64,000 nt of DNA from Gemmatimonadales bacterium. Its GTDB lineage: Bacteria; Gemmatimonadota; Gemmatimonadetes; Gemmatimonadales; GWC2-71-9. Position 1 is the stretch's first letter. Every line of letters starts with the position of its first letter. The notes beneath the pieces were generated by a model that saw nothing but the letters and a program-made list of their open reading frames with translations, was not told the origin of the DNA and made no database searches. The translations under genes and the position numbers were made by a program. The DNA is taken from positions 30,243 through 94,242 of the forward strand of contig DATJXC010000029.1 in NCBI GenBank assembly GCA_035500495.1. Reading direction: 5' to 3'. Below, piece after piece: positions 21,832 through 47,928 of the stretch.

Positions 21832-22623
21832 CTAGCGGCGCCAGGTCCATGCGGGGTCGGAGAAGCGGACGGAGGACGGCGGGCAAGGACGGGCGAGGAC
21901 GGGCGGGGACGGGCAAGGTGGACCCCAGGTGCTCGCGATTGCATCGGTCACTTCACCAAAGCCGACCGGGCGCCCGAGAATGGCCGATAGAGTCGTAGCG
22001 GAGCTGACCGCTGACGGCTGAACGCTGACGGCTGAGACCGTCTCCTGCGATCCATCCAGCAGGATCGATCCGTGCTGCAGGAAGGCTCGACCGAGTCGCA
22101 CCTGGGCGGAGCCGATCACTTTCTTCCCGTCAACGACGACCTCGCCACCCACCGGGGCGGAGAAACAAGCGCTCGGGCGACCGTCCAACGCCGGGATCCG
22201 CGTGCGGGGGGCGAGTGAGGCCGGCACGCCGAGGAGGCGTAAGGCCCTTGCCAGGCGCTCGTGGATCGCGCGGTAGCTCTCGGTCAAGGAGCCGAACGCC
22301 GCGATTGGCGCGGCGACGGCATAGGTCACTTCGTGCTCGTGCCACACCGCTCGACCCCCGGTGGGCCGGCGCACCACGTCGAGACCCAATCGCTCGATGG
22401 CGGCCCGATCGTACCGGGTCAGCGCCGGTTCATTGCGCCCGAGCGAAAGGCACGGCGGGGACCATCGATAGAGGCGCAGGAACGCGGCGCCGGAGCGGTC
22501 GGCTGCGCCGAGCAGCGATTCATCTTCCGCCATGTTCTCGTCCCCGGGGCGACCTTCCGGCTCGACCGACACGCACCACGTTAAGGTCGCTGCACCGACG
22601 GGAGAGGCTGCCACCGGCTGCAT
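21832..22623 (-). CDS. lipoate-protein ligase / octanoyltransferase family protein (BPL_LplA_LipB domain)
   Basis: FLRLYRWSPPCLSLGRNEP, VVRRPTGGRAVWHEHEVTY and GKKVIGSAQVR (catalytic Lys region). I prefer start MQPVAAS at 22623, 1 nt into the gcvP stop (TGATG); the track start is 22668. The C-terminal third carries repeat DNA. Confidence 0.7.
   Translation of the reverse strand: MQPVAASPVGAATLTWCVSVEPEGRPGDENMAEDESLLGAADRSGAAFLRLYRWSPPCLSLGRNEPALTRYDRAAIERLGLDVVRRPTGGRAVWHEHEVTYAVAAPIAAFGSLTESYRAIHERLARALRLLGVPASLAPRTRIPALDGRPSACFSAPVGGEVVVDGKKVIGSAQVRLGRAFLQHGSILLDGSQETVSAVSVQPSAVSSATTLSAILGRPVGFGEVTDAIASTWGPPCPSPPVLARPCPPSSVRFSDPAWTWRR
21867..21916. repeat. GGACGG-based short tandem repeat (three 10-mers plus two degenerate units) inside the CDS 3' end
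   Basis: GGACGGA GGACGGCGGGCAA followed by GGACGGGCGA GGACGGGCGG GGACGGGCAA. The GGACGG motif starts at 21867, 21874, 21887, 21897 and 21907. Confidence 0.7.
22003..22037. repeat. five tandem heptamers (GCTGANN)5, CAGCSGT-family element inside a CDS
   Basis: GCTGACC GCTGACG GCTGAAC GCTGACG GCTGAGA. 22002-22025 matches the right arm of the intergenic palindrome (26262-26285) at 21 of 24 positions. Confidence 0.7.
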
Positions 22624-26215: not shown

Positions 26216-26220
26216 GGCGG

Positions 26221-26280
26221 GCTGTCAGCGGTCAGCCGTCAGCGGTCTGCCAAAAGCTGGTAGCTGACCGCTGCATGCTG
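26221..26280. repeat. heptamer-periodic palindromic element (CAGCSGT family)
   Basis: (CAGCGGT CAGCCGT CAGCGGT) at 26226-26246 faces GCTG motifs spaced 7 nt apart at 26256, 26263, 26270 and 26277. CAGCGGTCAGC (26226-26236) pairs perfectly (11 bp) with GCTGACCGCTG (26263-26273). It fills the gcvH-to-hydrolase spacer. Confidence 0.75.
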
Positions 26281-26286
26281 AACGCA

Positions 26287-26679
26287 TCATTTCCCTTCCA
26301 GCTGCTTCTGATAAGCCGCGGCGTCGAGCAGGCCGGCCGCGTCCGCCGGCTTATCCATCTTCAACTTGATCATCCAGCCTTCGCCGTAGGGATCCCGGTT
26401 CACGAGGGCCGGATCTTGCTCGAGGGCGGCATTCGGGGCCACGACTTCCCCCGCGACGGGGCAGAACAACTCGGATACCGCCTTGACGGCCTCGATGGTG
26501 CCGAAGACCTGCATCTTGCCGAACTTGGCGCCGGGTTTGGGGAGATCCACGTACACCACGTCGCCCAGCTCGCCCTGTGCGTAATCGGTGATCCCGATCT
26601 GCACGACGCCGGCTTGCGCGGTCGGCTTCAGGTATTCGTGCTCGGGTGTATAGCGCAGGTCTTTGGGAATGTTGGCCAT
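26287..26679 (-). CDS. gcvH: glycine cleavage system H protein
   Basis: MANIPKDLRYTPEHEY, VGITDYAQGELGDVVYVDLP and the lipoyl-lysine motif EAVKAVSE. The track start is TTG 26697; ATG 26679 fits family length better. Confidence 0.9.
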   Translation of the reverse strand: MANIPKDLRYTPEHEYLKPTAQAGVVQIGITDYAQGELGDVVYVDLPKPGAKFGKMQVFGTIEAVKAVSELFCPVAGEVVAPNAALEQDPALVNRDPYGEGWMIKLKMDKPADAAGLLDAAAYQKQLEGK

Positions 26680-26749
26680 CGGGCTGGTGCCCTTCAAGGA
26701 GGGGGTTCAGGTGACGCCGCGAAAAACTACCCGCGGCCGCAAACCATTG

Positions 26750-27349
26750 TCAAGCTTGACCCTGCAGCGCTTCCCACACGCGCCGGGCCTCGCGCTCCAG
26801 GTCCTCCCGGCTCCCGGCATTGTCGATCACGAAGTGACTCTTGGCGCGCTTGCGATCCGACGCCATCTGGGAGGCGATCATCTGGTCGGCGGCATCGTTG
26901 GTGAGACCGCGTAGCGCCCGCAGGCGCGTGCGCCGGACCGCCATGGGGGCGTCCACCAGCACCACGGCGTCGAATTGGGTCGGATCGAGCACTTCGAAGA
27001 GCAGGGGGATGTCGTTCACCACGATGGCGTCTCCCCGGGCGCGGGCGGCGGCCAGCAGCTCGTCCCGGCGCCGCTGCACGGCGGGATGCACGATCGCGTT
27101 CAACGCACCCAGCGCTGCGTCGTCTCCCATCACCTTCCCGCGCAGTGCCGCCCGGTCGAGGGACCCGTCGGCGGCGAGTACGTCACTGCCGAACCGACGG
27201 GCGATCGCCGCCACCACCTCGGTCCCGGGTGCCTGGGCTTCCCGCGCCAGCAAGTCGGCGTCGATGATGGTCGCCCCCCAACCGCGGAACAGCTCGACCA
27301 CCGTGGACTTGCCGGCGGCGATGTTGCCGGTGAGGGCGACGTTCAACAT
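26750..27349 (-). CDS. coaE: dephospho-CoA kinase
   Basis: The track ORF is over-extended to 27430, through the hairpin repeat. I take the start MLNVALTGNIAAGKSTV (P-loop) at 27349. IIDADLLARE and VVLVDAP fit CoaE. Confidence 0.85.
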   Translation of the reverse strand: MLNVALTGNIAAGKSTVVELFRGWGATIIDADLLAREAQAPGTEVVAAIARRFGSDVLAADGSLDRAALRGKVMGDDAALGALNAIVHPAVQRRRDELLAAARARGDAIVVNDIPLLFEVLDPTQFDAVVLVDAPMAVRRTRLRALRGLTNDAADQMIASQMASDRKRAKSHFVIDNAGSREDLEREARRVWEALQGQA

Positions 27350-27353
27350 GAAG

Positions 27354-27431
27354 CAGTGCGAAGTGCGAAGTGCGAAATGCGAAGTGACCGTGGGGTGGAC
27401 ACTTCGCACTTCGAATTTCGCACTTCGCACT
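27354..27431. repeat. long inverted repeat built from GTGCGAA heptamers (32-bp stem)
   Basis: Left arm 27355-27386 (AGTGCGAAGTGCGAAGTGCGAAATGCGAAGTG) pairs with right arm 27400-27431. That gives 29 Watson-Crick pairs, 1 G-T and 2 mismatches, with a 13-nt loop. It occupies nearly the whole tdk-coaE spacer. Confidence 0.9.
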
Positions 27432-28036
27432 CAGAGTAGCGCCGTTTGGTCCTCATCCGCCCGCGGAACCTTGTGGCAATGCCGGCACCGGGCCTCGTAC
27501 GCCTCCCGCCCGCCGACCATGATCGTGGGGCTGTCCCAGGTCGCCGGGCGGCCGTTCACCAGGCGCTGATTGCGGGTCGCCGGACCGCCGCACACCACAC
27601 AAATGGCGTGGAACTTGTCCACCACTTCCGCGATGCACATCAGCGTGGGCATCGCGCCGAACGGCAGCCCGCGAAAATCCACGTCCGTGCCGGCCAGGAT
27701 GACCCGCACTCCTCGGTCGGCGAGGTGGTTCACGACGCCCACAATGCCCTCGTCCAGGAACTGCACTTCATCCACCGCCAGCACCTCGGTGTCGGGGCGC
27801 CGACGGCGCATGATCTCCTCGGAGCTGTCGACCGGCTCTGCCTCGACCATCAGCCCGTCGTGTGTGGACACGGTATACAACCCCGCGTAGCGCTCGTCCA
27901 AATGGGACTTGAACACCTGAACTTGCTTGCGGGCGATCACGGCCCGCCGGACTCGGCGGATCAGTTCTTCGCTCTTGCCGGAGAACATTACTCCGGCAAT
28001 GACCTCAATCCATCCGGGGCGGGTGCCGTGGAACAT
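27431..28036 (-). CDS. tdk: thymidine kinase
   Basis: The track ORF is over-extended to 28561. [28 protein letters not shown] (P-loop), VLAVDEVQF and the zinc-site cysteines CVVCG...CRHCH. An alternative ATG is at 28072. Confidence 0.9.
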
Positions 28037-28173
28037 GGGGGAAGGTGCCAAGCGTCGGGTTTCAGGTGTCATATAGGCGCCGTGGGCGTTCTGGCACTGA
28101 CGCCAGACACCCGGCACCTCGGTGGGGGAAGGGTAGTCGGGGGGGAGGGGGGGGTCAAGGAAGTGTTGGTATC

Positions 28174-28203
28174 TTGCGGATTTCCGGGGGATACCCCAAT
28201 ATT
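28174..28203 (+). promoter_or_regulatory. candidate sigma70-like promoter upstream of the HU gene
   Basis: TTGCGG (28174-28179), 18-nt spacer, AATATT (28198-28203), about 95 nt upstream of the HU start. Pattern match only. Confidence 0.3.
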
Positions 28204-28300
28204 GTGTCGGTGTATCAAGGGTTTTCTGAAGGCCCCCAGAGATAGGGGTTGAGTTGCAAGGGCTTCTCCCGGACCCACTTCCTACCACAAGGAGACCGCT

Positions 28301-28588
28301 GTGAACAAGGCCGAGCTGATCGCGGCACTGGCGATGCGGACGAAAATGTCCAAGGCCGATGCCAGCCGGACGATCGAGGCCCTCTTCGACGACAAGGGCA
28401 TCATCGCCGGTGAGCTGAAGAAAGGCGCGAAGGTGCAGGTCACGGGATTCGGCAACTTCGAGGCCCGCAAGCGCGCGGCCCGGATGGGTCGCAATCCCAA
28501 GACGGGCGCCGAGATTCAGATCAAGGCGACGATTGCCCCGGCGTTTCGTGCCGGCAAACAATTGAAGATGGCGGTAAACAAGAAGTAG
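28301..28588 (+). CDS. hup: HU family DNA-binding protein
   Basis: GTG start preceded by [17 protein letters not shown]...[28 protein letters not shown] is the canonical HU arm motif. Confidence 0.95.
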
Positions 28589-47890: not shown

Positions 47891-47928
47891 CAGTGCGAAG
47901 GGCGAAATGCGCAGTGCGAAGTGACCGT
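47891..47928 (+). repeat. solo half-copy of the GTGCGAA-heptamer element
   Basis: CAGTGCGAAGGGCGAAATGCGCAGTGCGAAGTGACCGT matches 27354-27391 at 34 of 38 positions (hand alignment, same strand). No inverted partner lies nearby. Confidence 0.8.

Follow-up and report, generated by a model that had tools for sequence, protein, structure and literature searches.

Reports of tandem repeats of seven-nucleotide units in bacterial intergenic DNA go back to 1990, when the STRR sequences were described (Mazel 1990, as cited in PMC4692102). According to later accounts, a 2007 survey found heptamers to be the most over-represented class of long simple sequence repeats (SSRs); intergenic heptamer SSRs were over-represented in many bacteria and slippage was proposed as their origin (Mrazek 2007, as summarised in PMC4692102 and PMC4679880). 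Arrays of the TAACTGA type have been proposed as binding sites for a translational regulator (MacGregor 2015, PMC4679880). Heptamers also build the IVS of the 23S rRNA of Coxiella burnetii, where the 28-bp stem formed by terminal inverted repeats consists of three to four tandem GACAGAT units, varying in number between strains. An S23p ORF occupies the loop of this IVS, and its stem is cut by RNase III in vitro (PMC4990558). Salmonella and other enterobacteria carry ORF-less 23S IVS stem-loops that are removed by RNase III (Burgin 1990, as reported in PMC4990558). The S23p family (PF05635) is described as uncharacterised and as a homologue of the DGR protein Avd (PMC10053308). In the one literature collection searched, we found no paper on a GTGCGAA repeat, no paper that ties PF05635/S23p to heptamer SSRs except for the Coxiella IVS, and no paper describing ORF-less copies of PF05635 elements in operon junctions; a search of a single collection is not proof of novelty.

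The Gemmatimonadales DNA analysed here (hereafter the window, a stretch of 64,000 nucleotides whose numbering is used throughout) contains two inverted heptamer arrays, 27355-27386 and 27400-27431, which fill the 81-nt spacer between tdk and coaE (Table 1). Tandem Repeats Finder resolved the left array as a period of 7 with 4.6 copies of AGTGCGA (92% matches) and the right array as the same period with 4.6 copies of CACTTCG (84% matches), in keeping with the "roughly four" heptamers per arm of the original prediction. An inverted-repeat search gave arms of 35 nt each (27355-27389 and 27397-27431; 89% complementary). Over arms of 32 nt, the 29 Watson-Crick pairs, single G-T pair, two mismatches and 13-nt loop described previously were reproduced, the three non-Watson-Crick positions being one G-T, one G-A and one A-C. 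A computational RNA fold, a check proposed along with that description, gave -58.3 kcal/mol for the mRNA-sense (minus) strand against -30.0 +/- 3.2 for shuffled sequences (z = -8.8), and none of 200 shuffles was as low. The two-unit heptamer pattern matched eight times in the window (0.44 expected), a number reached by 0 of 100 shuffles. On the mRNA side, the stem includes the final base of the tdk TGA and ends 5 nt (GCUUC) short of the coaE ATG, and no Shine-Dalgarno (SD) sequence lies between the stem end and this ATG; the placement and the missing SD had both been noted before and are confirmed from the sequence. The long stem of the hairpin, with arms of 32-35 nt, is thus made of terminal inverted repeats as in IVS/S23p elements (stems of about 25-35 bp), and the hairpin also has the features of an intergenic heptamer LSSR/STRR, namely a tandem 7-nt unit in at least three copies and above chance. 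It has no PF05635 ORF in its loop and lies outside 23S rRNA. An Rfam gathering scan of the whole window found no family and no rRNA, and a consensus scan of 26600-28400 found neither a terminator-like nor a promoter-like site. Tdk of the window shows 100% identity to a protein of a Gemmatimonadales MAG. Contigs of the same strain (L112-L115) carry an identical tdk-coaE hairpin and are hence uninformative.

Table 1 Positions of the tdk-coaE hairpin, its flanking genes and the other heptamer arrays in the window.
Feature	Position	Strand	Remarks
tdk, thymidine kinase, upstream gene	27431..28036	-	Pfam PF00265, E = 1.5e-45; TGA at 27433-27431; 201 aa in public contigs
5' arm on the tdk-coaE transcript, GUGCGAA-type heptamers x4.6	27400..27431	-	Starts on the final base of the tdk stop
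Hairpin loop, 13 nt	27387..27399	-	Full-length relatives have a PF05635 gene of about 400 nt here (L143, L151, L161, L197-L206)
3' arm on the transcript, (CACUUCG)n	27355..27386	-	Ends 5 nt ahead of the coaE AUG
coaE, dephospho-CoA kinase, downstream gene	26750..27349	-	Pfam PF01121, E = 6e-47; ATG at 27349; orthologue N-termini agree
Second, decayed heptamer hairpin, NNNCAGC x4, loop, GCUGACN x4	26216..26286	-	Spacer between gcvH and MBL-fold hydrolase gene
Solo GCTGACN array, 4.7 units	22003..22035	+	Within 3' part of the ORF called lipoate-protein ligase
Solo AGTGCGA-family array, 4.6 units, degenerate, AGTGCGAAGGGCGAAATGCGCAGTGCGAAGTGACCGT	47892..47926	+	2 nt past the stop of an SDR gene; without inverted partner

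The repeats also affect gene calls. In the mechanical ORF list, coaE extends to a GTG at 27430 and reaches 226 aa, compared with 199 aa in public assemblies. Since this frame reads through the hairpin, the extension is an artefact, and the public gene calls, which start at ATG 27349, bear out the earlier suspicion of a spurious 5' extension. The mechanical tdk ORF (27431-28561, minus strand) carries 175 additional codons upstream of the real start, beginning with a TTG at 28561, and overlaps the divergent HU gene (28301-28588, plus strand), an artefact typical of high-GC DNA.

Further heptamer arrays are present in the window. The copy at 47891 mentioned in the original prediction is a real array, but it is a single arm; it has in common with the left arm of the tdk-coaE hairpin the letters GACCGT beyond the array. 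The second hairpin, located in the same operon as tdk and coaE, is weaker than the tdk-coaE hairpin (-40.5 kcal/mol, z = -3.1). It fills the gcvH-MBL spacer, ends 7 nt ahead of a GTG start, and is composed of the units GTTCAGC, ATGCAGC, GGTCAGC and TACCAGC, a loop, and the units GCAGACC, GCTGACG, GCTGACC and GCTGACA. In most relatives the gcvH-MBL junction is empty, with an ATGA overlap. Within the 64 kb, AGTGCGA is found at two loci and the GCTGAC type at three. The ORF called lipoate-protein ligase (21832-22623, minus strand) also contains 3.9 copies of a 10-nt repeat, CGGGCAAGGA, at 21880-21918, and about 80 of its C-terminal codons may be spurious read-through of repeat DNA.

A survey of 80 tdk loci from metagenomes revealed empty junctions, hairpins and full elements in Gemmatimonadales relatives. 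At L118, L124 and L139 the tdk stop (TAG/TAA) is directly followed by the coaE start (GTG/ATG), and other loci have a very short spacer. About 20 loci carry a heptamer hairpin of two inverted arrays with about four units each. These hairpins have 21-37 pairs and z values from -4 to -11.5; their stems start between -3 and +4 nt from the stop codon and end between -3 and +9 nt from the start codon. Their units differ by locus and include GTGCGGA, ATGCGGA, ACGCGGA, ATTGCGG, GCGGGAA, GGGGGAC, GGGGCAC, GGGCTCG, GTATTCG, GCTATCG, GTCATCG, GTTCTCG, GCTGACG and GACGTCA. A full element is found at L143, where the tdk stop is followed by TCTTTGG x4, a decaying PF05635 ORF (Pfam E = 1e-31), CCAAAGA x4 and the coaE start. 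Intact PF05635 genes are inserted at the tdk-coaE junction in either orientation at L151, L161 and L197-L206. This family, comprising orthologues with other 7-mers and full-length relatives enclosing a PF05635 gene, had been missed in the original prediction.

The state of the junction differs between close relatives. L117 carries a hairpin and diverges by 1.5-2% in Tdk from the empty L118 and L124. Within 3-5% Tdk divergence, three different units (L134, L137 and L136) are found together with an empty junction (L139). Between L128 and L129, whose Tdk is identical, the 5' arm changes from ATGCGGA x4 to GTGCGGA x4. Turnover at the tdk-coaE junction is fast. Where filled and empty sites could be aligned, the insert separates the stop codon from the start codon and neither flank is duplicated; no target-site duplication or other mark of insertion was found in the comparisons of L117 with L118 and L124 or of the window with L139. 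A MITE was considered and rejected, because terminal inverted repeats are present without such a duplication. In L117 and in L144, one unit per genome is used in both the tdk-coaE and the gcvH-MBL spacers, and in L122 and L119 the PF05635 element and the tdk-coaE hairpin have a unit in common. The repeat unit thus appears to go with the genome and not with the locus. Such a genome-specific unit points to spread or conversion between copies and not to isolated slippage at one site. In the hairpins of L117, L137, L140 and L144 and in an element between accB and accC (L218), the heptamers regularly form six pairs and one mismatch, with the units of the two arms differing systematically at one position. 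This regular mismatch could be a protection against DNA palindrome instability or could tune RNase III cleavage.

An iterative profile search (jackhmmer) over 1.6 Mb of collected DNA identified 11 PF05635 ORFs, and inverted short-period arrays surround all of them, including two loci cut by a contig end (L042 and L119), for which the array is present on the visible side. The period of these arrays is 7 in eight cases and 9-10 in the other three (10 in L121, 9 in L151). The same bracketing of PF05635 genes by arrays was observed in three further lineages. In 419 kb of Gemmatimonadales DNA, all array pairs with a gap of more than 100 nt enclose PF05635 genes. Most of the PF05635 elements examined are located outside rRNA. 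The jackhmmer search found no PF05635 ORF in the 64-kb window, and full elements with AGTGCGA arrays were seen in other phyla only (L026 and L042). Relatives of the L161 protein (73-81% identical) occur at three insertion sites, namely at tdk-coaE, after a protein kinase gene and beside an M23 peptidase gene, and all of these elements have GGGTCTA/GGGTCGA arrays upstream and TAGACCC arrays downstream. Because the arrays are identical in kind at the three sites, they and the PF05635 ORF evidently stay together. In L197-L206, which are near-identical contigs from different samples, the PF05635 stop codon is the TAG of the first TAGACCC unit. Compared with L197, the TAGACCC array is shorter by 7 nt in L202 and by 14 nt in L204, and L199 has extra GGGTCGA units. 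The 7- and 14-nt differences are direct evidence of slippage polymorphism. In the predicted RNA fold of the L143 element, the arms pair across the ORF (z = -4.2).

The PF05635 elements showed other features. A simple code linking protein to unit was rejected, since L026 and L042 share the same unit with PF05635 proteins of different subfamilies. A second conserved insertion site follows an aminotransferase-like gene ending in ...FAKKLGD, where L119, L122 and L133 carry PF05635 elements with the units GGGAAGN, GGGGGAC and GGGGACG; at this site the unit drifts and the protein is clearly orthologous. The PF05635 proteins encoded at L121 2656-3132 and L151 2244-2753 are similar (AW..CH...LAVY N-termini) and are flanked by arrays with periods of 10 (GGAGGTTGGT) and 9 (CAGGAGCGG), which hints, from two cases, that the repeat period may track the protein subfamily. 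In a figure legend of a report on a large CRISPR discovery screen, "23S rRNA IVP" is named among the CRISPR-associated domains (PMC10910872). As a speculation, the short-period arrays flanking PF05635 genes might have been picked up as CRISPR-like arrays.

Xanthomonas provided a test case for the association of arrays with the protein. Among solved structures, the one nearest to the L161 protein is that of XCC0516 from Xanthomonas campestris (PDB 2GSC, five chains), whose family NCBIfam names "four helix bundle protein" (TIGR02436). In Xanthomonas, Dyella, Dokdonella and Stenotrophomonas, every XCC0516 orthologue is located between accB and accC. It has GGGAAT[C/G] x4 on its upstream side and CCATTC[C/T] x4 on its downstream side, and the downstream array runs exactly up to the accC ATG. 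The RNA of the L218 accB-accC element is predicted to fold with its arms paired across the ORF (-219 kcal/mol, z = -7.1). The arrays around the XCC0516 orthologues are the GGGAATC repeats of Xanthomonas, which number 186 per genome with 70-75 as inverted pairs and were read as G-quadruplex motifs, XCC0516 and IVS being unmentioned (Rehm et al. 2015, PMC4692102).

To see how far the unit of the window is distributed, species-representative genomes were scanned with the exact three-unit probe GTGCGAAGTGCGAARTGCGAA; the scan covered this one unit. It matched at least 111 loci, compared with about 0.5 expected in random sequence. The matches listed come from Gemmatimonadota, Acidobacteriota, Planctomycetota, Verrucomicrobiota, Bacteroidota, cyanobacteria, actinobacteria, proteobacteria and one archaeon, and the arrays among them are intergenic, often at contig ends and often beside arrays of other 7-mers. 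The original prediction had named uniqueness to this locus, apart from the copy at 47891, as part of what would refute it; in substance such uniqueness does not hold, given a unit at no fewer than 111 loci and an architecture found in about 20 relatives. A special role of the GTGCGAA unit was rejected, because any unit is expected to match if heptamer arrays are abundant. Some of the listed arrays have an inverted partner and most are single, so that not every heptamer array is a hairpin element. Clustering of the ORFs beside the 111 listed arrays, carried out to seek a shared neighbour protein, grouped only repeat-derived pseudo-peptides, from which we conclude that most GTGCGAA arrays have no adjacent PF05635 gene. 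The orientation of the arrays relative to flanking long ORFs (n = 101) was weakly biased, with starts after the TTCGCAC orientation in 30 versus 19 cases and stops before the GTGCGAA orientation in 29 versus 19, and this bias was not relied on. A comparison of array counts between periods 5-11 was discarded, as its thresholds were not comparable between periods. Contigs frequently start or end inside heptamer arrays (L115 at position 1; L008, L015, L036, L044, L055, L063, L077 and L080), and most contigs with PF05635 genes are shorter than 3 kb. The arrays seem to break short-read assemblies, which probably makes them look rarer in MAGs than they are.

We consider it somewhat more probable than even that the tdk-coaE hairpin is an ORF-less ("miniature") stem-loop element of the IVS/S23p type that is selfish, owes its form to slippage and probably introduces an RNase III site between the tdk and coaE genes. 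Several other origins were weighed. The hairpin could have evolved locally as a regulator of the tdk-coaE operon that gates or couples translation or that stabilises the tdk message at its 3' end, with the stem under selection and the heptamers a by-product of slippage. About 20 relatives with differing sequences do keep the architecture at the orthologous site, the stem brackets the stop and start codons in such a way that a ribosome terminating on tdk would melt the part masking the coaE AUG, and no SD is available for coaE. However, L118 and L124 lack the hairpin at 1.5-2% Tdk divergence from L117, full PF05635 elements occupy the same site in other relatives in either orientation, and the same unit recurs in unrelated spacers of one genome, whereas a local regulator would not be expected to have a genome-specific unit. 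This origin is therefore unlikely. We regard as quite unlikely that the hairpin is a neutral SSR unrelated to PF05635, in which slippage made the array, a template switch made its inverted copy and nothing acts on either. Such an SSR would fit the reported excess of heptamers in intergenic DNA and the slippage proposed for it (Mrazek 2007, as summarised in PMC4692102 and PMC4679880), the copy-number polymorphism that we saw directly, and the occurrence of one 7-mer's arrays in many phyla (at least 111 loci), as expected if all units are sampled. Yet it leaves unexplained why every examined PF05635 gene is bracketed by arrays, and why the arrays typically have 4-5 units and are paired at gene junctions. 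Nor does it account for the conservation of GGGAAT[C/G] arrays among genera of Xanthomonadales in which the PF05635 proteins share only about 70% identity.

The hairpin is also intergenic, palindromic, dispersed and of genome-specific sequence, as REPINs are. Mobilisation as a REP/REPIN-type element by a RAYT (an IS200/IS605-like Y1 transposase) is nevertheless highly improbable: the arms are tandem heptamers and not a REP consensus, ORF clustering showed no transposase-like family recurring beside the arrays in the 111 listed loci, and the gene inside the long versions is PF05635 and not a RAYT. The term "REP-like" used in the original prediction is therefore appropriate in the broad sense of a dispersed intergenic repeat family, but no REP/RAYT-type feature that we tested was present. 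Being very stable, G+C-rich and placed directly behind a stop codon, the hairpin could suggest an intrinsic terminator or attenuator ending the tdk transcript. We judge this to be very improbable as well, because no U-tract follows the stem (CUGCUUCAUGUUGAAC; tail CUGCUUCAUG), the consensus scan of 26600-28400 detected no terminator-like site, coaE would be left without a visible promoter, and the stem is far longer than those of typical terminators.

An ORF-less element of the IVS/S23p type would account for the locus as follows. Members of the class consist of two inverted arrays, usually with a 7-nt unit in about 4-5 copies, forming a 25-35-bp stem, and full-length members carry a PF05635 four-helix-bundle gene in the loop. 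The ancestral, empty tdk-coaE junction would have had abutting stop and start codons. Slippage would reshape the arrays by changing the number of units and homogenising the units within an arm, and copies would be spread or converted within the genome. Given the genome-specific unit and such spread or conversion of copies within a genome, the element may be selfish or nearly neutral. Its mobility is suggested by the presence/absence pattern and by unit sharing, to which gene conversion could equally give rise. Judging from the 23S IVS stems, RNase III should accept the near-perfect 32-bp duplex on the tdk-coaE transcript as a substrate, and cleavage of this duplex would be the most likely molecular consequence of the hairpin. 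An RNA-processing role, which had been among those raised in the original prediction, is thus also the role that we favour. A cut there would yield separate tdk and coaE messages and would release the SD-less coaE start, which is otherwise sequestered. In addition, since the stem reaches to both the stop and the start codon, a ribosome that terminates on tdk would also open it beside the coaE AUG, and the ancestral stop-start coupling could survive the insertion. The survival of this coupling may explain why inserts are tolerated at gene junctions. By these routes the hairpin may influence coaE expression.

More tentatively, the PF05635/S23p pentamers (five chains in PDB 2GSC) and short tandem arrays, typically of 4-5 heptamers, may form a cognate protein-repeat system. 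Each repeat family would then have one protein gene together with many ORF-less arrays and hairpins, which the protein would bind or help to make or maintain. Such a system would use transcribed junctions between genes, as well as rRNA helices, to spread through many phyla, and could be a hidden cause of the intergenic heptamer excess seen in STRR, GGGAATC, TAACTGA and the arrays described here, with the tdk-coaE hairpin as a non-autonomous member. We regard this wider proposal as possible and short of probable. The interest of the locus comes less from the single hairpin than from the link that it exposes between heptamer repeats and S23p/Avd-like proteins. The link is simple and checkable. 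In rRNA IVSs as well as at operon junctions, PF05635 genes lie inside inverted heptamer-array stems, and in relatives these junctions are taken by ORF-less hairpins built alike. Should the link hold genome-wide, a large class of "orphan" repeats would be explained, RNase III processing sites would be predicted in conserved operons (tdk-coaE, and accB-accC in Xanthomonas), and the four-helix-bundle proteins would gain a concrete nucleic-acid partner to test. In practice, heptamer arrays lead to spurious ORF extensions, such as that of coaE, to broken metagenome assemblies and possibly to confusion with CRISPR-like arrays.

Among described systems, REP/BIME and REPIN-RAYT sequences of gamma-proteobacteria resemble the hairpin in being dispersed intergenic palindromes, some of which are located between operon cistrons. 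Inter-cistron REP/BIME sequences stabilise the upstream mRNA, and one coding "master" is accompanied by many non-coding copies. Unlike the window hairpin, REP/REPIN sequences have no heptamer periodicity, are partnered by a Y1 transposase and have an unrelated consensus. Avd is a pentameric, nucleic-acid-binding four-helix bundle. As an accessory protein of DGRs (PMC10053308), it shares its fold and family with the cargo of the full-length elements; its partners are a reverse transcriptase and a template repeat, neither of which was seen near the elements here. The TAACTGA repeats of marine Beggiatoaceae (MacGregor 2015, PMC4679880) and, from what is cited of them, the cyanobacterial STRR (Mazel 1990 in PMC4692102) are likewise genome-specific heptamers with a patchy distribution. 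Their arrays have 2-6 units, are mostly intergenic and end a few nucleotides before SD-less start codons; unlike the window hairpin, nearly all of them are single direct arrays (one inverted case). The GGGAATC repeats of Xanthomonas form intergenic arrays of about four heptamers, often as convergent inverted pairs, and are transcribed. Their single or paired type is kept between species and their length varies, and they differ from the window hairpin in the unit. The Salmonella-type ORF-less IVS is also a short, gene-less stem-loop that is sporadic among close relatives and processed out of its host RNA; there, unlike for the window hairpin, the host is rRNA. Enterobacterial ORF-less 23S IVSs are about 90-110 nt in size.

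With the 23S IVS that carries an S23p ORF in Coxiella burnetii and Leptospira (PMC4990558), the hairpin shares a tandem-heptamer stem inside a host transcript. This IVS is self-contained and tolerated in the transcript of its host, and PF05635 is also found in the loop of the full tdk-coaE relatives. The window hairpin differs from it by having a 13-nt loop without an ORF and by its location in an mRNA spacer between two protein genes instead of helices 9, 25 or 45 of 23S rRNA. Excision by RNase III has been shown for the rRNA IVS and would be expected for the tdk-coaE hairpin. Since no PF05635 ORF is present here and full elements occupy the same junction elsewhere, the window copy is filed as an ORF-less derivative or relative only, that is, as an ORF-less, mRNA-borne variant of the IVS/S23p class and not as a canonical IVS.
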